A stretch of DNA of 45,006 nucleotides from a virus, in UHGV virus genome UHGV-0282798; one strand, given 5' to 3'. Positions 8,727 through 42,083 of the stretch are shown here, piece after piece. Within the stretch, counting starts at the first letter, position 1; each line of letters opens with the position of its first letter. The notes below the pieces were generated by a model, which worked only from the letters and a program-made list of their open reading frames with translations, was not told the origin of the DNA and did no database searches. The position numbers were made by a program, and so were the translations under genes.

Positions 8727-8899
8727 GAGAATAGTTACGTTGCCGTTGTGATTCTTTCGTTTCTTAAAAGAGTACGCAACGCAGGGGGTGGGCATTAGCC
8801 CACCCCAGCGGAGTGAAGTACTCTCTACCTTGCTCACGGCAACTATAGAAACTTTTAATTATCAGTGACTTGGGTATTTAGGCGGGATTAACAATAGAC

Positions 8900-9000
8900 T
8901 ATGGCCCTTCCGAATGCGGGCAGCGACACTACACTCAGTGCTAACGCACCGCTCCGTTCTCCTGCCGCACCGCGGTCGCTTGTTCATACTTCACAAGCTC
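8900..9000 (-). ncRNA. Conserved structured 5-prime leader RNA or small RNA (putative), copy 1
   Basis: About 100 nt downstream of the repeat promoter are conserved between copies with compensatory changes in two hairpins; the only ORF through it is not conserved in copy 2. Confidence 0.35.
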
Positions 9001-9006
9001 AGGTGG

Positions 9007-9035
9007 AGCTTAGCATATTTTTAGTGAAAAGTCAA
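9007..9035 (-). promoter_or_regulatory. Sigma70 promoter inside repeat copy 1 (minus strand): TTGACT-17-TGcTAAGCT
   Basis: Reverse complement: -35 TTGACT (9030-9035), 17-bp spacer, extended -10 TGC TAAGCT (9007-9015); identical in copy 2. Confidence 0.5.
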
Positions 9036-12042: not shown

Positions 12043-12070
12043 GTAAAAAGAAAGGGGCGTTAAGCCCCTT
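12041..12070 (-). terminator. Intrinsic terminator for the repressor gene
   Basis: Stem AAGGGGC (12052-12058) / GCCCCTT (12064-12070); on the minus strand it is followed by UCUUUUUACC. Lies between the convergent primase and repressor genes. Confidence 0.5.
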
Positions 12071-12275
12071 CACCCAACGCCAGCCACTTGGCGTCTACTT
12101 GCAGCACTTCCGCCAGTTTAAACAGCGTTGCCGGGCGGACGTCCTGAGTTACCCCGAGTGCAAGCTGGTTAATCGCGCCCTGGGAAACGCCCGCAAGGAC
12201 CGCCAGACGGCGCTGGGAGATACCGAGTTCTTTACGGCGTTGCTCTACACGGATGCCTAGTTCAGATGGTTGCAT
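12060..12275 (-). CDS. XRE-family HTH transcriptional regulator (Cro/CI-like)
   Basis: 71 aa; QRRKELGISQRRLAVLAGVSQGAINQLALG is a classic XRE HTH. Confidence 0.75.
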   Translation of the reverse strand: MQPSELGIRVEQRRKELGISQRRLAVLAGVSQGAINQLALGVTQDVRPATLFKLAEVLQVDAKWLALGEGA

Positions 12276-13066: not shown

Positions 13067-13121
13067 CTACTTAACTTATGGTGCCATCATACGTGAGGGC
13101 ACCAAACTGAGGGTCGGAATT

Positions 13122-13610
13122 ATGGATTGGCATGAGATATTCGACTATGACCGCGCCACAGGAAAATTGTATTGGAAAATACAGCCATCTCATGCGGTTA
13201 AGCCGGGTGAAGAGGCTGGAAGTGTGGGAACTGAGGGTTATGTAGATGTTGGTTTTGCAGGCCGTTTATATAAGGCGCATCGCATTATATGGGATATGAT
13301 GAACACTGACGATAAACTAACGCCGAACCACCAAATAGACCACATAAACCATATCAGAACGGATAATAGGATAGAAAATTTAAGGAAGGTACACCACTGT
13401 GACAACGCCAAAAATCAAAGCATGCGCGTAGACAATACCTCAGGTGTCGCGGGAGTATACTTCGACCGAACTAATAGAAAATGGAGGGCCCGCATTAGGG
13501 CGAGTGGCACGACCATTTGTTTGGGGAGATACGATAGTTTAGAAGAAGCCGCATGCGCACGCCAGAAAGCAGAAGAGATTTACGGGTTTCACAAAAATCA
13601 TGGGGGGTAA
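13122..13610 (+). CDS. HNH-AP2 homing-type endonuclease
   Basis: HQIDHINHIRTDNRIENLR (HNH) followed by AGVYFDRTNRKWRARIRASGTTICLGRYDSLEEAACARQKAEEIYG (AP2). ORF track starts at 12984; ATG 13122 (MDWHEIF) with RBS avoids overlap. Confidence 0.75.
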   Translation: MDWHEIFDYDRATGKLYWKIQPSHAVKPGEEAGSVGTEGYVDVGFAGRLYKAHRIIWDMMNTDDKLTPNHQIDHINHIRTDNRIENLRKVHHCDNAKNQSMRVDNTSGVAGVYFDRTNRKWRARIRASGTTICLGRYDSLEEAACARQKAEEIYGFHKNHGG

Positions 13611-19794: not shown

Positions 19795-21211
19795 GTTTCA
19801 AAGGCGCGAGTACCAGAAACTCATGACTTCGTTCATGTTGCGGCACCATCGCTGTAACATATGGGCGAGCATGGGCGCCGGGAAGACTGGCAGCGTACTG
19901 TGGGCATTAAACCGACTGTTCCGCAACGGTCAAATTAACGATGACGACCGCGTGTTAATCCTTGCCCCGTTGCGCGTTGCGTCCGGCACATGGCCAGCAG
20001 AACAAGAAAAATGGCAATTCCCGTGTCTACGTGTCGTCGATGCAACTGGTTCGGAGAAGCGCCGCATCGCGGCGCTGGAGTCTGACGCTAACGTGGTGTG
20101 CACGAACTACGAAGTTATCGAGTGGCTGATTGACTACTACGGCAAAGACGACTGGCCTTTTACGGTTATCGTTGCCGATGAGAGCACGAAACTGAAGTCA
20201 TTCCGCAGCCGTTCTGGAGGTAGCAAGCGGGCAAAGGCGCTCAGCAAAGTGGCGTTCGGTAAAGTTAAGCGTTTTATCAACCTGACTGGTACGCCGTCGC
20301 CGAACGGCCTCAAAGACTTGTGGGGTCAGAACTGGTTTATCGACGCTGGCGAGCGCCTGGGGTCGTCGTACACGGCATTCACCGACCGATGGTTTAACTC
20401 TGTACAGAAAGGCAAATCCGCGATGGCGCGTGAGTATCATGCGCGCCCTGGCGCGGATAATGAAATTCACCAGAAGATGAAGGACATCAGTCTTACGATT
20501 GATGCCGCTGAGTGGTTCGGTTGTGAAGCGCCGATTATTGTTCCAGTTGAAATCGACCTGCCGAAGAAAGCACGTCAGGCGTACATCGATATGGAGGAAA
20601 AGTTATTCGCGGAACTGGAGAGCGGGGAAGTTGAAGCGGCTAACGCGGCGGCGAAGACGTCGAAGTGTTTGCAGATTGCATCCGGTGCCGTATATGTATC
20701 CGGGCCAGACGGCGACGCAACCAAAGACTGGGAGAAAGTGCACGACACGAAACTTGATGCTCTTGAGTCAATTGTTGAGGAGTTACAGGGTTCGCCGCTA
20801 TTGGTGGCCTATCAGTTCAAGCACGAACTGGAGCGTATCCTTAAGCGATTCCCGCAGGCGCAGGCGTTTTCTAAAGGTGCGAAGGGTAATAAGCAGATGG
20901 AAGCGTGGAACCGAGGAGAGATACCTATGCTATTGATACACCCAGCCTCCGCAGGCCACGGGCTGTCGCTACAACACGGCGGGCATCACATGGCTTTTAT
21001 GAGTCAGGGATGGAACCTGGAACACTATTTGCAGGTTATCGAGCGAATAGGTCCGGTAAGGCAGATGCAGTCTGGGTACAAACGGTCGGTATTCATTTAT
21101 CAAATAATAGCCCGAGATACTCTTGATGAAGTTGTCTCCGCTCGTACAGACGAGAAAAGGTCTGTACAGGACGAACTACTTAACTATATGAAGAGAAGGA
21201 GTAAGAAATGA
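19787..21211 (+). CDS. SNF2-family helicase
   Basis: GAGKTG (Walker A), ADESTK (DExx), LTGTPSPN, HPASAGHGLSLQ. Track ORF 19664; ATG 19787 (MSKFQRREYQ) overlaps the upstream stop. Confidence 0.75.
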   Translation: MSKFQRREYQKLMTSFMLRHHRCNIWASMGAGKTGSVLWALNRLFRNGQINDDDRVLILAPLRVASGTWPAEQEKWQFPCLRVVDATGSEKRRIAALESDANVVCTNYEVIEWLIDYYGKDDWPFTVIVADESTKLKSFRSRSGGSKRAKALSKVAFGKVKRFINLTGTPSPNGLKDLWGQNWFIDAGERLGSSYTAFTDRWFNSVQKGKSAMAREYHARPGADNEIHQKMKDISLTIDAAEWFGCEAPIIVPVEIDLPKKARQAYIDMEEKLFAELESGEVEAANAAAKTSKCLQIASGAVYVSGPDGDATKDWEKVHDTKLDALESIVEELQGSPLLVAYQFKHELERILKRFPQAQAFSKGAKGNKQMEAWNRGEIPMLLIHPASAGHGLSLQHGGHHMAFMSQGWNLEHYLQVIERIGPVRQMQSGYKRSVFIYQIIARDTLDEVVSARTDEKRSVQDELLNYMKRRSKK

Positions 21212-21396
21212 AATTGTTTTGTGTTAGCTCAAACGTACCTGAGTTCAAAGAGGGTGAAGAATATCTGGCCTACTATAACGGCATTGAGTACCGCGTAATT
21301 TATGATGACTCGGGCTACATAATCGCCGATTACGATGATGACTCGGGCTACATAATCGCCGAGTTCTTTAACGACGGTTTGGTGGAGTTCGAATGA
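21208..21396 (+). CDS. Small protein with internal tandem duplication
   Basis: ORF track; protein contains DDSGYIIA twice. Confidence 0.4.
   Translation: MKLFCVSSNVPEFKEGEEYLAYYNGIEYRVIYDDSGYIIADYDDDSGYIIAEFFNDGLVEFE
21304..21360 (+). repeat. Perfect 24-bp direct repeat separated by 9 bp
   Basis: gatgactcgggctacataatcgcc at 21304-21327 and 21337-21360. Confidence 0.8.
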
Positions 21397-21533: not shown

Positions 21534-21538
21534 AGAAA

Positions 21539-21568
21539 AGGCCCCAAACGGGGCCTTAGTTTTAGATA
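21539..21568. terminator. Bidirectional terminator hairpin between convergent blocks
   Basis: Stem AGGCCCC (21539-21545) / GGGGCCT (21550-21556), loop aaac, then TAGTTTTA; near-identical to the hairpin at 34422-34441. Confidence 0.6.
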
Positions 21569-32120: not shown

Positions 32121-32149
32121 TTGCACACCCCAATATAATAGGGTACTAT
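32121..32149 (+). promoter_or_regulatory. Promoter TTGCAC-17-TACTAT with dyad (island promoter)
   Basis: -35 32121-32126, -10 32144-32149; dyad AATAGGGTACTATT 32137-32150; same TTGCAC/TACTAT class as 7191 and 8698. Confidence 0.5.
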
Positions 32150-32179
32150 TCACCTACACCAACAATGGAGGGATTTAAA

Positions 32180-32371
32180 ATGTCAAGTTTACCAGTTTCC
32201 TTAATTCTGTTTGCACTTCTCGCTTATTTCGCGCCTTTCCTGGTTGCGTACTTCCGTAATCATAAAGCGAAGTTGGCAATATTCATGGCTAACCTGTTTC
32301 TTGGCTGGGTTCTGCTGCCGTGGGTATTTATTTTAATATGGGCTTGCAACTCGAACGTGAAAGAGAAGTAG
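32180..32371 (+). CDS. Imm-like small membrane protein (superinfection-immunity-type, putative)
   Basis: AYFAPFLVAYFRNHKAKLAIFMANLFLGWVLLPWVFILIWA fits the pattern I recall for the superinfection-immunity family. Track ORF 32165; ATG 32180 has a GGAGGG RBS. Confidence 0.45.
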   Translation: MSSLPVSLILFALLAYFAPFLVAYFRNHKAKLAIFMANLFLGWVLLPWVFILIWACNSNVKEK

Positions 32372-32409
32372 GCTACTATAAGACAAATCCTAAACACGAG
32401 GAAGTAAGC

Positions 32410-33540
32410 ATGGCCCATAAGAAAATAACCGACGAACAGTTACAGGAAGAATTGAACGCCGGAATGAAGAATGCAGACATCGCCCGTAAATACGGCATCT
32501 CAGACCGCGTAATTCGTATCCGTAAAGCGAAGCTGGCTAAGAAAGGCGTAGGCCACGGGCGTGACGTTAGTCACCTTGTCCCGGACGGCTACAAAATTAA
32601 AGGGACCTCGTCACTGGTGGACGAGTTCGGCAACACTAAACTTCAATGGGTTAAGACCGACACCGATGCCGAACGTCAGGTCGAGTTGATGAAAGCCGTA
32701 ATCGAAGGCATGAAGTCGGAGATTACTCCAGTTGCACCAGTTAAAGCCGTTCGCGCCAAACGTGACGATAAACTACTCAATCTTTACACGGTATCTGATT
32801 TCCATCTCGGTATGCTGGCCTGGGCCGACGAGAGCGGCGACGACTGGGATATGAAGATTGCGGAAGACCTGTTCTCTCGCTGGTTCGATGCTGCGTTCCA
32901 GAAAGCGCCAGATGCAGGAACAGGAGTTATTAACCTGCTTGGCGACCTTGCGCACTTCGATAGTCTGGATGCCGTTACACCTGCAAGCGGCCATGTTCTT
33001 GACGCGGACACGCGCTATCAGAAACTGGTCCGCTACATGATTCGTATGGTTCGCCGTGTTATTGATATGGCGCTGGTTAAGCATAAAAATGTTCGCTTGC
33101 TTATCGTGCAAGGGAACCACGACGAAAGTGGAATGATTTGGTTAGCTGAGATGTTCAGTACGCTGTACGACAATGAGCCGCGTGTGTTTGTCGATACTTC
33201 ACCAGATGTTTACAAGATGGTGCAACACGGCAAAACGACGCTGTTCTTTACACACGGGCATAAATGCCGGTTTGAGGTTGTCGAACCAATTATGATAGCT
33301 AAGTTCAGAAAAGCATTTGGAGAAAGCGAGTACAGTTACGCGCATGTAGGGCATCTCCACCATCAAAAGATTGTAGAAAGTAGGAATATGGTAGTGGAGC
33401 AACATCGCACTCTCGCGGCGAAAGATGCATATGCTTCCCGCGGCGGGTGGATGTCTAAGAGGTCCGCTAATGTCATAACCTATAGTTCAGAGTTCGGGGA
33501 AGTAGGTAGGCTTTCAATCTCACCGGAGATGCTAAGATGA
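32410..33540 (+). CDS. HTH domain fused to calcineurin-like metallophosphoesterase
   Basis: N-terminal HTH (MKNADIARKYGISDRVIRIRKAKL); phosphoesterase motifs SDFHLG, LGDLAHFD, VQGNHDE, FTHGH, HVGHLHH. Track ORF 32320; ATG 32410 (MAHKKITDEQ) preceded by GAGGAAG. Confidence 0.65.
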   Translation: MAHKKITDEQLQEELNAGMKNADIARKYGISDRVIRIRKAKLAKKGVGHGRDVSHLVPDGYKIKGTSSLVDEFGNTKLQWVKTDTDAERQVELMKAVIEGMKSEITPVAPVKAVRAKRDDKLLNLYTVSDFHLGMLAWADESGDDWDMKIAEDLFSRWFDAAFQKAPDAGTGVINLLGDLAHFDSLDAVTPASGHVLDADTRYQKLVRYMIRMVRRVIDMALVKHKNVRLLIVQGNHDESGMIWLAEMFSTLYDNEPRVFVDTSPDVYKMVQHGKTTLFFTHGHKCRFEVVEPIMIAKFRKAFGESEYSYAHVGHLHHQKIVESRNMVVEQHRTLAAKDAYASRGGWMSKRSANVITYSSEFGEVGRLSISPEMLR

Positions 33541-34007
33541 AGTACCTTGATGTTTCAAAACAATTTAAATACTGCCCTGATACGGGGCAGGTTACCAGGA
33601 TATCTACTGGTGCTGAGGTTGGTACGGTTGGTGTAAGAGGATATCTGTGCTGCGGTATGGGTGGTAAAACAGTATATGTCCACCGCGTAGCATGGTGTCT
33701 TTATAATAAATGTGACTTAGACAGGAAAACACAAATAGACCACATAAACCATAACAGGCTAGACAATAGAATAGAAAATCTACGCGCCACCGACAATACA
33801 GGGAACAGTAAAAATAAAACTATGAGAAAGATAAATAAATCCGGGGCTACAGGTGTAAGTTTCCACAAAGCCGCGGGTAAGTGGCGCGCGTTTATAAAAG
33901 TTAACTACAAACAAGTGCATTTAGGGCTTTACGACGATTTTGATGTAGCGGTTGCCGCGCGTAAAGCCGCTGAGAGTAAATACGGTTTTCATGAAAACCA
34001 TGAGTAG
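33537..34007 (+). CDS. HNH-AP2 homing-type endonuclease
   Basis: HRVAWCLYN ... QIDHINHNRLDNRIENLR (HNH) and GVSFHKAAGKWRAFIKVNYKQVHLGLYDDFDVAVAARKAAESKYG (AP2); paralog of 13122-13610. Confidence 0.75.
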   Translation: MKYLDVSKQFKYCPDTGQVTRISTGAEVGTVGVRGYLCCGMGGKTVYVHRVAWCLYNKCDLDRKTQIDHINHNRLDNRIENLRATDNTGNSKNKTMRKINKSGATGVSFHKAAGKWRAFIKVNYKQVHLGLYDDFDVAVAARKAAESKYGFHENHE

Positions 34008-34018
34008 GAGAGCTATTT

Positions 34019-34249
34019 ATGACTTCAAAATATAACCGCACAATGACAAATACCCACGGCAGCACTATGACAGTAGACGTTTATGATGTGCTGCGGGCCT
34101 TCGACATCCGCGACCCAGCACTGCAACACGCTTTGAAGAAATTATTGTGCATGGGCTTGCGTGGACACAAAGACACCGGGACGGACTTAGCGGAAGCAAT
34201 TGAAAGTCTGGAGAAGTTACGAGAGTACCGGAGTAATATTGATGAGTGA
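34019..34249 (+). CDS. Hypothetical small protein
   Basis: ORF track. Confidence 0.4.
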   Translation: MTSKYNRTMTNTHGSTMTVDVYDVLRAFDIRDPALQHALKKLLCMGLRGHKDTGTDLAEAIESLEKLREYRSNIDE

Positions 34250-34418
34250 AAATATTATGAAAACGATATATGTAATCCGTGTATACGACGAAGAATGGGA
34301 CGAGTGGGTTGATATTTACGCTGTAGGTAGTAAGGAAGAGGCCTCTAAAGAGATGGCAGAACGGAGTGACCGAGGTCAGTTAACTAACTTCTACGAAATG
34401 CCATTCAAAAGTGAGTAA
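34200..34418 (+). CDS. Hypothetical small protein
   Basis: ORF track; true start probably an internal ATG (MSENIMKT or MKTIYVIRV). Confidence 0.35.
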   Translation: MKVWRSYESTGVILMSENIMKTIYVIRVYDEEWDEWVDIYAVGSKEEASKEMAERSDRGQLTNFYEMPFKSE

Positions 34419-34421
34419 GAA

Positions 34422-34448
34422 AAGGCCCCGAAAGGGGCCTTAGTTTTA
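34422..34448. terminator. Terminator hairpin closing the plus-strand island
   Basis: Stem AAGGCCCC (34422-34429) / GGGGCCTT (34434-34441), loop gaaa, then AGTTTTA; sits between the island and the convergent major tail gene. Confidence 0.6.
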
Positions 34449-35618
34449 TGCGTAGGTGATACGCTGGATAACAATAGACGACTGGTACTGATTGCCGGTA
34501 GCCTGGCCTTCGATGGACTGAGTGATTGACTCTGGTCCGCCAATCTCTGGCGTAACCGCCGTAAGTTCTGCGCGTTTCAGGCTGAAAGACATAGCCCCGT
34601 TTACCCCCGCCAGAATAGAGTTAATCTCTACCTGCTGTTCGTTGATAAACTTCTGAATCATCGCCATGTCGTACAGCTTACCGGAGATAGAGAAGGTGTT
34701 AGCCGCGCGACCACGTTCCACGAACGCAACGCTACTGTTGCCGAGTTCGAACTGCGCAGAAGCACCGTTGTCGTTTGTGATGGTCAGAGTATCGCAACGC
34801 AACGGCGTAGAACCGTCGAACACGGACACATCTACGGATGAGAACGGCTCATCGGTAAACGTCACCTGAGAGAAATCAGAACCTGCTGGCGGTGCAGAAA
34901 GAATCTCCTGACTTAGACCGATGAACGGGAAGCTGCCTGTCACCATCGCGTTTACGGCCTGTTCAATGGTGAATCCGGAGATTTCCACGCCTTTGGTCAA
35001 CATGTACGCGTCCGGGTTCCCGCACTGTCCTTTGAACCATGTCAGGATGGAGAACGTCTTACATGCGTTACTGGTTTCCAGTTTGTCGCCGGTTTTAGCG
35101 TCGGTGGTTACAGTCTCTGCTGTCAGCGTGTGCTGAATGCCCGCACCCGTAACTACAAGAGCAGAAACCGCGGTCACGATAAACGGTTTTGCGTTGTCGC
35201 CGGTTAAGTCGGTGAACGCAATCAGGTCGCCAACTTCTACACCGTCAGTAATGAAGCTACCGGCAGCGCGGGTGAATGTTTTACCTGCTGGGGCGACCGT
35301 AATTTCAGCACCCGTAATCTCCACCCCATCCTGCCACGTAGAAGTCATCGCGCCCGCGAGGAAATCATCCTGGCTACGCGAGCTAAGTTCGATGGCGTAC
35401 TCCCCGCTAACCTGCTTATTACCAGTGCGGATGGATGTAGTTTCACGGCTGCCGTCGAGTTCGTTGGAAGTCAGCGCATCGCGGGTTACGGCTGGAACGC
35501 CGCCCGTGTTACGCAACGGCGACCAGACCGGGTTAGTCGGTGTTACGCCCGGGGTATTTTCCACCACATAGAATTGCGCGGTATTCGCGCCCTTAAAAGG
35601 AGTTGTAGCCATATTCAC
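34446..35618 (-). CDS. Major tail protein (putative)
   Basis: 390 aa, Thr/Ser/Gly/Ala-rich; follows tail-completion genes. Positional call. Confidence 0.55.
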   Translation of the reverse strand: MNMATTPFKGANTAQFYVVENTPGVTPTNPVWSPLRNTGGVPAVTRDALTSNELDGSRETTSIRTGNKQVSGEYAIELSSRSQDDFLAGAMTSTWQDGVEITGAEITVAPAGKTFTRAAGSFITDGVEVGDLIAFTDLTGDNAKPFIVTAVSALVVTGAGIQHTLTAETVTTDAKTGDKLETSNACKTFSILTWFKGQCGNPDAYMLTKGVEISGFTIEQAVNAMVTGSFPFIGLSQEILSAPPAGSDFSQVTFTDEPFSSVDVSVFDGSTPLRCDTLTITNDNGASAQFELGNSSVAFVERGRAANTFSISGKLYDMAMIQKFINEQQVEINSILAGVNGAMSFSLKRAELTAVTPEIGGPESITQSIEGQATGNQYQSSIVIQRITYA

Positions 35619-40783: not shown

Positions 40784-41047
40784 CTATTCCAGAATATTCC
40801 TCACGTAATCCTGCAACATGAACACTTTCAGCCTCAGTTGCCGTACACATTCAGCGTTCTGAACGTCGATAGCCAAATCCTCGTCAGCATCACTACTTGG
40901 CGGTGCCAGCTTGCACGGCGGCTGCATCATTGTCGTATCCGGGGATGGAATTGGCGTTTGCGACGGCGCGGGACTTGAGTTGCACGCGCTCAGGGTCAAA
41001 AGTGCACACGCTGCGGCTAGGCGTTTTAATGTACTTAACGACTTCAC
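40784..41047 (-). CDS. o-spanin (Rz1-like lipoprotein)
   Basis: Signal peptide with lipobox LTLSAC, Pro-rich mature part; +1-frame gene overlapping the 3-prime half of the Rz-like gene. Confidence 0.6.
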   Translation of the reverse strand: MKSLSTLKRLAAACALLTLSACNSSPAPSQTPIPSPDTTMMQPPCKLAPPSSDADEDLAIDVQNAECVRQLRLKVFMLQDYVRNILE

Positions 41048-41279
41048 GGGTAATCACCTCTGATTTCGTCTTGCCTTCGTTGTCGGCGGCTGCGGCCTTT
41101 GACTCATCCTGCTGCTGCCGTTGTGTCTTCTTAGCTAACTCAGCCTTCGCTTTTTGGGTTTGTTCGGTAACGAGGTCAAGCCGTCCCGCATCCCAGCCGC
41201 GGTTGTATTGGTACCCCCCGTACAGCCATACCGTAAGCAAGCCTGCCGCCGTTAGTGTTGCTGTGTTGCTTAGATTCAT
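40893..41279 (-). CDS. i-spanin (Rz-like)
   Basis: N-terminal TM (TATLTAAGLLTVWLYGGY) then a charged helical periplasmic region; overlaps the Rz1-like ORF. Confidence 0.55.
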   Translation of the reverse strand: MNLSNTATLTAAGLLTVWLYGGYQYNRGWDAGRLDLVTEQTQKAKAELAKKTQRQQQDESKAAAADNEGKTKSEVITREVVKYIKTPSRSVCTFDPERVQLKSRAVANANSIPGYDNDAAAVQAGTAK

Positions 41280-41397
41280 GTTTCCCCTTTCTCGATAAGT
41301 AAAGCCCCGCCTTAAAGCGGGGCGCTAGTCCTTATCATTTAAACATAGAAACGGCGTAATCTCAGTAAACCAGTTACTCTTTACACAAGCAAAAGAG

Positions 41398-41532
41398 TAT
41401 GGCCCTTCCGAACGCGTCAGCGTAACTACACTCAGGACTTACGTCCCGCTCCGTTACCTGCCCGCGCCGCGGTCGCTCGTTCATACTTCACAAGCTCAGG
41501 TGGAGCTTATCATATTTTTAGTGAAAAGTCAA
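41398..41532. repeat. Repeat copy 2 of the ~135-bp promoter-plus-leader element
   Basis: Aligns with 8900-9035; lies between the terminator at 41591-41617 and the Rz start at 41279. Confidence 0.85.
41504..41532 (-). promoter_or_regulatory. Sigma70 promoter inside repeat copy 2 (minus strand): TTGACT-17-TGaTAAGCT
   Basis: Reverse complement: -35 41527-41532, -10 41504-41509 with upstream TG. Confidence 0.5.
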
Positions 41533-41590
41533 CTATTCGAATAGTTTATTCCAACATTTACAATTGATTGGAATAACTGGAATAATTACG

Positions 41591-41617
41591 AGCCATAAAA
41601 AGCCCCTTTCGGGGCTT
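41591..41617 (-). terminator. Intrinsic terminator (mainly minus strand)
   Basis: Stem AAGCCCC (41600-41606) / GGGGCTT (41611-41617), loop tttc; on the minus strand it is followed by UUUUAUGG. Confidence 0.55.
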
Positions 41618-41621
41618 CAGT

Positions 41622-42083
41622 TTATTCTGGCTTAGTCACCTTCGCCGCTTTGCTTACACCCTCTACACCATCGGCATCGGTAACTTTAACGAAGTATTCA
41701 CCGACCACATTAACCGTCAGAGACAGAGCTTCTTCTGGGGCGTTGACTACTTCCTTACCGTCTTTGTACCAGGTCAGCACATACGGCGCTTTGCCCGCCT
41801 TAACTTCGACAGTGATAGTTGCGCTGCCGTCTGCCAGTTCCGCATCCTGCGGTTGCACAGAGAAATACACGTCGCCAGCGTCCGCCAGATACGGAATCTC
41901 ATAAAGCATACCCGCCGCGGGCAGCGCGATGCCTGTTTTATCCGCAAACGGCATATCGTCTACCGGTGTACCGAGTACACTTTCGTCTTCAATAAACACC
42001 ACGTTCTCACCAGAGCCGGATACACGGGCGTACTGGACTACGCGGCGCGCGGGTACATCGGTTACTTTGAAAAAGCCCATCAT
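41622..42083 (-). CDS. Ig-like domain protein
   Basis: GKAPYVLTWYKDGKEV ... GEYFVKVTD looks like an I-set/Big-type domain; position after the Mu-F-like gene. Confidence 0.45.
   Translation of the reverse strand: MMGFFKVTDVPARRVVQYARVSGSGENVVFIEDESVLGTPVDDMPFADKTGIALPAAGMLYEIPYLADAGDVYFSVQPQDAELADGSATITVEVKAGKAPYVLTWYKDGKEVVNAPEEALSLTVNVVGEYFVKVTDADGVEGVSKAAKVTKPE

Follow-up and report, generated by a model that had tools for sequence, protein, structure and literature searches.

The stretch of DNA analysed here, the virus genome UHGV-0282798 (45,006 nucleotides, called the window below), is the genome of a Kagunavirus (K1G-like) phage. The gene under study encodes a protein of 376 aa in which a helix-turn-helix (HTH) is joined to a calcineurin-like metallophosphoesterase (MPE) domain. 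It lies on the plus strand at 32410-33540, inside an open reading frame (ORF) at 32320-33540, and its internal ATG at 32410 stands 5 nt after a Shine-Dalgarno sequence, GAGGAAG (32398-32404, plus strand), read directly from the sequence. The product that starts at this ATG has the length of nearly all database homologues. The assignment is given by the ORF, by a match to PHROG 704 and by 98% identity to a gene of phage EC3-1. At the DNA level, the region 32100-33800 matches 197 phage records, chiefly Escherichia and Salmonella Guernseyvirinae, with 94% identity to Escherichia phage vB_EcoS-Ro145c2YLVW and 85-94% to the other K1G-like phages listed. The annotation of EC3-1, a 98%-identical relative, follows the usual Kagunavirus plan, with the replication module running rightward and the lysis, head and tail modules leftward. 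A plus-strand island made up of a T4 Imm-like gene, the MPE gene, an HNH endonuclease gene and small ORFs interrupts the minus-strand tail module. The MPE gene is an ordinary one: copies of 94-98% identity are already in GenBank, and it is a typical annotated member of its family.

Domain architecture of the protein

The catalytic domain, of the Mre11/gp47 type, covers residues ~119-376 (32764-33537; all features of the protein are on the plus strand). All five motifs of the calcineurin-like superfamily (DxH, GD, GNH[DE], H and GHxH) are present, namely motif I with D130-x-H132 (32797-32805), motif II with G178-D179..H182 (32941-32955), motif III with G235-N236-H237-D238 (33112-33123), motif IV with H282 (33253-33255) and motif V with G314-H315-x-H317 (33349-33360). 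Conservation was read from an alignment of 133 diverse representatives that are 33-50% identical to the query. D130, H132, G178, D179, N236, H237, H282, G314 and H317 are invariant in it, and H315, H182 and D184 are conserved in at least 90%. As the metal ligands are invariant among these relatives, the ligand set is under selection and no chance match. Motif II is followed by a family-specific loop, VTPxSGHxLDxDxR, in which T190, L197, D198 and R202 are at least 90% conserved. The Pfam matches of the window protein lay below the cut-offs, both for Metallophos_2 (PF12850, E 1.7e-5, score 25.3 against 27) and for Metallophos (PF00149, E 1.4e-3, 19.5 against 21.5); the relative P0137 clears the PF00149 cut-off (25.1 against 21.5), and close relatives have a precomputed PF12850 match. 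Searches of NCBIfam and PADLOC gave nothing useful for this domain.

The AlphaFold2 model made with the 133-sequence alignment (mean pLDDT 93.6, pTM 0.81) shows a beta-sandwich phosphoesterase fold that starts near residue 119 and runs to the C-terminus. The protein stops ~60 residues past motif V, and the model finishes with core strands. Mre11, PolD and Rv0805 were the top Foldseek matches of the model (E ~1e-8 to 1e-7), and BFVD holds many phage proteins of ~400 aa with the same fold, some of them from phages of Gram-positive hosts.

At the N-terminus, a three-helix HTH that resembles LuxR/GerE and sigma-70 region 4 is predicted at residues 8-44 (32431-32541), on weak profile matches together with the AlphaFold2 helices at 8-16, 21-28 and 32-44 (mean pLDDT of 10-residue blocks 84-96). 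The profile matches were to Pfam GerE (E 0.0087; 16.1 bits against a cut-off of 23.5), the NCBIfam FixJ C-terminus (E 0.0021) and PHROG 836 (E 1.8e-4), and the family profile matched GerE in the PDB with E 0.033. Each is weak, but they agree with one another and with the model. Its columns are occupied in 130 of the 133 relatives, and its recognition helix is only moderately conserved. When ten members with divergent N-termini were scanned, five matched other Pfam HTH types (Sigma70_r4/HTH_11, HTH_8, HTH_23/28 and HTH_30/50). Most of these matches were under the Pfam cut-offs, and the sole member that passed, P0134 (Sigma70_r4, HTH_11), has two HTHs. Some DNA-binding head thus appears to be usual across the family. 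Between the HTH and the catalytic domain lie a low-confidence linker at residues 45-60 (32542-32589; block mean pLDDT 67-69, with residues 49-51 below 50) and a module of a beta-hairpin and a long helix at residues 61-104 (32590-32721; AlphaFold2 strands 61-70 and 76-85, helix 87-104), in which G74 and W80 are near-invariant (at least 90% of the 133 relatives).

A sequence-only reading made earlier from the letters of this DNA had described an HTH and an MPE with a full set of motifs in one protein. The peptides it quoted (MKNADIARKYGISDRVIRIRKAKL, SDFHLG, LGDLAHFD, VQGNHDE, FTHGH and GHLHH) are all found in the 376-aa product, and the invariant ligands bear the description out. It had also considered that the metal ligands might be lost or that the protein might fall in a morphogenetic family; the ligands are kept, the family is PHROG 704, and a morphogenetic role has no support in the evidence.

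Family distribution and closest characterised enzymes

PHROG 704, whose name, 'DNA repair exonuclease', is itself a prediction, matched residues 4-375 of the protein over profile positions 2-389 of 390 (E 9.6e-166). The family (VOG9929) includes ST16 of phage T1 and gp22 of K1G; the window protein is a full-length member with the same architecture and shares 44-98% identity with genes annotated in Drexlerviridae, Dhillonvirus and Guernseyvirinae. A HMMER search of 1.84 billion cluster representatives (clusters at 50% identity) returned 4,693 clusters at E <=1e-3 and 1,154 at E <=1e-30, most of them 370-420 aa long and aligned from near the N-terminus. With tblastn, the protein was found in 2,042 of 50,697 phage records. 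The carriers include Guernseyvirinae, Dhillonvirus (73% identity) and Drexlerviridae (42-48% identity), together with Jersey-like phages, Vibrio siphophages, N4-like roseophages, Campylobacter myophages, and Flavobacterium and Microcystis phages. In T1, the gene ST16 is located at 40822-41955. It is reported that the module holding the MPE gene occurs in 508 of 522 Drexlerviridae (PMC13164509). The family is a persistent core gene in Drexlerviridae (T1 included), Guernseyvirinae and Dhillonvirus. The names given to this same gene in GenBank conflict, and include 'DNA polymerase II small subunit', 'oxidoreductase', 'transcriptional regulator', 'DNA repair exonuclease', 'calcineurin-like phosphoesterase' and 'hypothetical protein'.

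The sequence-only reading had called the domain fusion unusual. These counts overturn that view, as the fusion is the fixed architecture of PHROG 704 throughout this distribution. The HTH columns are filled in nearly all aligned relatives and half of the divergent members scanned match other HTH types, and on this comparison the fusion is old and fixed, a hallmark of the family.

To place the catalytic domain, the family profile was compared with matched small alignments built from diverse tblastn matches (nine T5 A1 homologues and eight T4 gp47 homologues). It aligned with the 8-sequence gp47 alignment at 96.6% probability (E 5e-10), over 178-197 columns that span motifs I-V, while the T5 A1 homologues gave 39-54% probability and 31-71 confidently aligned columns in hhalign. 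With single sequences, hhalign gave 74.5% for T4 gp47 and 17.6% for T5 A1; the E. coli proteins CpdA and SbcD reached 4.2% and 3.0%. When the family HMM was run against the whole PDB, the only MPE chains at E <10 were T. maritima Mre11 and a P. putida nuclease MPE, at non-significant values (E 0.5-1.3). Because the gp47 match stands far above those of A1 and CpdA, the catalytic domain is a relative of the phage Mre11/SbcD branch and not close to T5 A1 or to the class III cAMP phosphodiesterases.

The nuclease domain of T4 gp47, Mre11 and SbcD is homologous to the MPE domain of the window protein, but the two kinds of protein differ outside it. Only residues 1-230 of the 339 of gp47 align, and the Mre11 capping domain and Rad50-binding C-terminus have no counterpart in the window protein. 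In turn, the N-terminal HTH and the beta-hairpin/helix module are not in Mre11, and the VTPxSGHxLDxDxR loop is family-specific. According to its RefSeq note, the T4 gp46/47 complex is needed for recombination and for host-DNA degradation.

No Rad50 partner was found, as the sequence-only reading had stated. There was no SMC/AAA_23/Rad50/SbcC-like protein in the ten larger window ORFs scanned by Pfam, which include all six of at least 500 aa, and no Rad50/SbcC is annotated in EC3-1. The scanned ORFs matched a helicase-primase, a DUF2800 PD-(D/E)XK exonuclease, a family A polymerase, an SNF2 helicase and a gp2.5-like ssDNA-binding protein; in the tail region, one ORF had a tail-spike match and the other three had no Pfam match at all. 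A survey of five genes on each side of the MPE gene, clustered over 88 loci from 30 lineages, showed no universal neighbour and no Rad50/SbcC/gp46 among the conserved neighbours.

T5 A1, a pre-early MPE (PHROG 1745), is like the window protein a stand-alone phage MPE with no Rad50 and with a long N-terminal extension, and the two share the colinear segments NHDxxxSxWL and D..Y..G..S....ITY. It differs in motif II (HDVxDFxSRNHHN) and in length (485-595 aa), and the relationship is distant; PHROG 1745 was not among the PHROG matches of the window protein. A1 was considered as the nearest characterised relative for its similar motif III and C-terminal segments, and was set aside because gp47 matched far better with the matched alignments. 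Among the A1 homologues, that of Caulobacter phage CcrPW starts with an HTH resembling the one of the window protein (..FSRKYGVPRSTLQLRLAKAAEGG), and that of Vibrio 249E41-1 is annotated 'homeodomain-like'. The A1-like MPE genes of Vibrio, Aeromonas and Flavobacterium phages precede a gene for a polynucleotide kinase (PNK), a deoxynucleoside-5'-monophosphatase (dmp) or a MazG-like pyrophosphohydrolase. The HTH-MPE plan and the nucleotide-metabolism neighbourhood are thus seen again in another, distantly related family of phage MPEs, that of the T5 A1 type. It was reported that A1 is necessary and sufficient for host DNA degradation and that it interacts with RNA polymerase (bioRxiv 10.64898/2026.04.02.716235).

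Other characterised enzymes resemble the window protein less closely. The small subunit of archaeal PolD, DP1, a 3'-5' proofreading exonuclease, is 12% identical to it in sequence. DP1 carries an OB fold in its N-terminal module, whereas the model of the window protein has an HTH and then a hairpin and helix there. Moreover, no DP2 catalytic subunit was found in the window, and the polymerase of this phage belongs to family A. The class III cyclic-nucleotide phosphodiesterases CpdA and Rv0805 have the superfamily fold and the same ligand set, with no specific similarity to the window protein beyond the shared superfamily motifs. The MPE of the cluster A mycobacteriophages (A10ZJ24 gp48 / Bxb1 gp47) is a phage MPE without a Rad50 partner, like the window protein. 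The likeness is by description; the gp48 study reports phosphodiesterase activity and disruption of host genomic DNA early in infection, and names no HTH (PMC12287305).

The plus-strand island and its operator

The first gene of the island (32180-32371, plus strand) encodes a superinfection-immunity membrane protein like T4 Imm (Pfam Imm_superinfect, E 9.3e-13; PHROG 1039, E 1.8e-23). Its ORF is listed from 32165; the better ribosome-binding site precedes the ATG at 32180. In 16 loci, an Imm-like gene immediately precedes the MPE gene (position -1). Downstream, overlapping the MPE stop codon, lies a gene for an HNH homing endonuclease with an AP2-like domain (33537-34007, plus strand; Pfam HNH_3, E 3.4e-10). 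HNH homing endonucleases form two clusters at position +1 of the surveyed loci, in 5/30 and 4/30 lineages that possibly overlap, and in T1 an HNH gene also comes directly after the MPE gene. The HNH gene is a mobile insert and lies outside the function of the enzyme. A paralogous HNH/AP2-type gene is located at ~13100-13610 (plus strand); the two share a stretch of 51 nt with 84% identity (13332-13382 and 33732-33782, repeat family D5).

The last clear gene of the island is an ORF of 76 aa (34019-34249, plus strand), which matches positions 150-220 of the 235 of PHROG 2452 (E 2.4e-36) and also PHROG 17613, 'ATPase' (E 7e-21), with no Pfam match. The homology is to the C-terminal end (~70 aa) of phage proteins of ~240 aa, among them one with the annotation ATPase; a domain that elsewhere forms part of a larger protein here either stands alone or survives as a remnant. 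The same ORF comes after the HNH gene in Salmonella phage SE131_1NRH. That it might be a remnant of the K1G P-loop gene was considered and rejected, as BLASTP found no similarity. The island is closed by a bidirectional terminator-like hairpin (34422-34441), which is convergent with the major tail gene (34446-35618, minus strand). Three copies of such a hairpin, AAAAGGCCCCnnnnGGGGCCTT, occur at 21534-21564, 34418-34448 and 41595-41625 (family D4), with identities of 94% and 71% to the reference copy; convergent genes flank the first two, at 21534 and 34418.

In K1G, the MPE gene is followed directly by genes for a HAD phosphatase (Pfam HAD_PNKP, 6.7e-20) and a P-loop protein that matches dNMP kinase (PHROG 139, 1.5e-44), the genes overlapping. 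This pair, with the phosphatase at +1 and the P-loop protein at +2, was found in 3 of the 30 lineages; in the window, the HNH endonuclease and the 76-aa ORF stand in its place. PNK and dNMP kinase were reported to be the commonest genes after the MPE gene in Drexlerviridae without the SH3 gene (PMC13164509). The gene directly upstream encodes a single-stranded DNA-binding protein in a Vibrio phage, a DNA ligase in Campylobacter phage NCTC12673 and thymidylate synthase in an N4-like roseophage. Other recurrent neighbours are endolysins, a protein with a dATP/dGTP-pyrophosphohydrolase-like domain, DUF3310-like proteins and a FEN-like (5'-3') exonuclease. In four distant phages, Pfam showed no relationship among the small ORFs directly downstream of the MPE gene.

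Upstream of the Imm-like gene is a putative promoter with an operator (32121-32150, plus strand), formed by a -35-like TTGCAC (32121-32126) and a -10-like TACTAT (32144-32149). The operator palindrome, AATAGGGTACTATT (32137-32150, plus strand), overlaps the -10-like hexamer. A consensus promoter scan did not call the island promoter, and we infer its function. The palindrome AATAG-N4-CTATT has seven exact sites in the window (7190, 7506, 8697, 12350, 15095, 18871 and 32137) and four with one mismatch (3609, 12306, 41524 and 43152), where ~1 is expected; none of 100 shuffles reached 11. It lies at six other early or replication promoters besides that of the island. Two classes of promoter carry it. 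The first, TTGACA-N4-AATAGnnnnCTATTATAGTT, is rightward and stands before replication genes, where three exact palindromes lie between perfect TTGACA and TATAGT hexamers (repeat family D2). The second, CTTGCACAC-N8-AT-AATAGGnTACTATTCAc..ACACCAAC, occurs at 32137 (plus), 7190 (minus) and 8697 (minus), the latter two being leftward promoters. In each of the 20 Guernseyvirinae loci fetched, exactly one palindrome stood 270-450 nt before the MPE start; the other 67 loci lacked it. By its sites, the set looks regulon-like.

A gene of 71 aa at 12060-12275 (minus strand) encodes an XRE/Cro-like HTH repressor, annotated 'repressor' in EC3-1, and faces a divergent region with two copies of the operator (12306 and 12350). 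The phage group of the window is usually treated as strictly virulent. Judged from this position, the XRE-type repressor is the likeliest binder of the operator. The HTH of the MPE protein itself was also considered for this part, the repressor beside two operator copies being the more economical candidate. As the island shares its operator with early and replication promoters, we infer from the promoter type that the island and the early and replication genes are transcribed together, apart from the surrounding tail genes. Two further repeats were noted in the window. A direct repeat of ~145 nt is present at 8892-9035 and 41390-41532 (115 nt at 87% and 27 nt at 89%), 32.5 kb apart, and its second copy ends in the one-mismatch site at 41524. 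A 33-nt unit is duplicated in tandem, with 91% identity, at 21302-21367, shortly after the end of the helicase ORF at 21211 (family D10).

Possible functions of the HTH-metallophosphoesterase family

Taken together, we lean towards the view that the protein is a stand-alone, two-metal DNA nuclease of the Mre11/SbcD/T4-gp47 type, tethered by its HTH and used for DNA processing or degradation during infection. The metal would probably be Mn2+, and the enzyme would act without Rad50, the flexibly linked HTH supplying the DNA contact that Rad50/SbcC gives to canonical Mre11. The MPE gene would be transcribed together with the superinfection-immunity gene from their own operator-controlled promoter. 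The enzyme may trim DNA ends for recombination-dependent replication or repair; alternatively, it may break host DNA to nucleotides, which the products of neighbouring kinase and phosphatase genes would handle. T4 gp46/47 does both and is a precedent for both roles; T5 A1 and mycobacteriophage gp48 are further precedents for phage MPEs that attack host DNA. The intact active site, the gp47-type match, the usual HTH, the DNA- and nucleotide-metabolism genes beside the MPE gene in other lineages, the operator shared with early and replication promoters and the persistence of the gene all speak for this reading. The sequence-only reading had taken the HTH to argue for a DNA-associated function, and this now seems the better reading in view of the gp47-type match and the retention of the HTH.

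Several points weigh against this nuclease. The ligands are common to all MPE enzymes, so the substrate is not readable from the motifs. The HTH matches of the window protein to known families are each under the curated cut-offs, and the XRE-type repressor is a likelier binder of the operator than the MPE protein. Across the 88 loci no neighbouring gene is universal; the HAD phosphatase and dNMP kinase neighbours have been lost altogether in the window phage, and such neighbours would also fit a phosphoesterase acting on nucleotides or one that heals ends. That host DNA is the substrate in Kagunavirus or T1-like phages is conjecture, possibly correct. Literature searches turned up no biochemical, genetic or functional study of any family member.

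A bolder form of the nuclease hypothesis, which we hold to be possible and rather doubtful, is that T1-like, Jersey/K1G-like, Dhillonvirus and many marine phages have in this family their long-unassigned DNase for degrading the host chromosome and scavenging nucleotides. The HTH would stand in for the Rad50 ATPase and let the enzyme attack DNA unaided. The adjacent dNMP kinase and HAD phosphatase would then process the freed nucleotides.

The K1G operon of overlapping MPE, HAD_PNKP phosphatase and P-loop genes could also be read as an end-healing module. The MPE would strip 2',3'-cyclic or 3'-phosphates or trim damaged ends, together with the HAD 3'-phosphatase and a P-loop kinase, and would repair the cuts that defence nucleases make in phage DNA or host tRNA. 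Bacterial Pnkp, which has an MPE phosphatase module, is an analogue. The DNA ligase directly upstream in NCTC12673 and the PNK gene after the MPE gene in many Drexlerviridae (PMC13164509) fit this idea. However, the P-loop neighbour matches dNMP kinase and not polynucleotide kinase, and the dedicated HAD phosphatase would leave the MPE redundant for that step. The phosphatase/kinase module is confined to three of the 30 lineages and missing in the window phage, the EC3-1 annotation and the scanned window ORFs showed no RNA ligase, and the nearest relatives of the protein are nucleases and not lambda-phosphatase-like enzymes. End healing is thus unlikely to be the function.

We also judge it improbable that the protein is a small-molecule nucleotide phosphohydrolase that shapes pools (dNTP/dNDP, NAD, Ap4A or similar), with the HTH in a regulatory or localising role. 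The dNMP kinase, HAD phosphatase, dATP/dGTP pyrophosphohydrolase-like domain, thymidylate synthase and dCMP deaminase among the neighbours would suit such an enzyme, and defence systems contain calcineurin-like enzymes that hydrolyse NAD+ or dNDPs, which are host effectors and not this phage gene. Nevertheless, the profile-profile similarity is specific to the gp47/Mre11 nuclease domain, and an HTH in nearly all relatives, with matches to other HTH types in half of the divergent members scanned, would be hard to explain in an enzyme for soluble nucleotides.

The resemblance of the HTH to LuxR/GerE and sigma-70 region 4, with the weak match to PHROG 836, 'late transcriptional activator', raises the possibility of a transcription factor or an RNA-polymerase-binding protein, in which the HTH regulates and the MPE is a sensor or second activity. 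The MPE gene closely precedes the lysis cassette in Drexlerviridae and also precedes terS in Dhillonvirus, the window has its conserved palindromic operator regulon, and another phage MPE, T5 A1, interacts with RNA polymerase by the same report (bioRxiv 10.64898/2026.04.02.716235). Against this, the invariant catalytic residues indicate that an enzymatic activity is selected, a moderately conserved recognition helix and an HTH type swapped between lineages fit generic tethering better than a fixed operator, and the XRE-type repressor is the better candidate for binding the operator. A regulator of this kind is quite unlikely.

The sequence-only reading had offered as an alternative a cyclic-nucleotide phosphodiesterase in anti-defence, which would destroy the signals of CBASS, Pycsar, Thoeris or type III CRISPR systems. 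This gained no support, and we consider it very unlikely, although the MPE gene adjoins a superinfection-immunity gene in Guernseyvirinae. CpdA scored far below gp47 in hhalign (4.2% against 74.5%), PADLOC gave no match for the window protein, the gene is a persistent core gene of whole phage families and not a patchy accessory, and the HTH would be left unexplained. Known anti-signalling enzymes use other folds, Acb1 being a 2H phosphoesterase and Apyc1 a metallo-beta-lactamase. A Ser/Thr/Tyr protein phosphatase of the lambda (PPP) type that reprograms host proteins can practically be dismissed: lambda does encode such an enzyme and the superfamily is the same, but in place of GDxHG / GDxVDRG / GNHE the protein reads SDFHLG / LGDLAHFD / GNHD, with no Arg-Gly after motif II.

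If the family is a Rad50-independent, HTH-tethered nuclease, it would show phages reducing the Mre11-Rad50 machine to one polypeptide, and it could name the enzyme of host-DNA breakdown or end processing in several phage groups that are widely used for therapy. It would also correct the misleading names 'DNA polymerase II small subunit', 'oxidoreductase' and 'transcriptional regulator'. As a DNase that degrades host DNA, it would also be the phage activity behind the methylated-mononucleotide danger signals (m6dAMP from degraded host DNA) to which systems such as Metis and PUA-Cal-HAD respond when these phages infect. The family is notable as a persistent core gene that is named by prediction alone, and it is a reasonable target for biochemistry.

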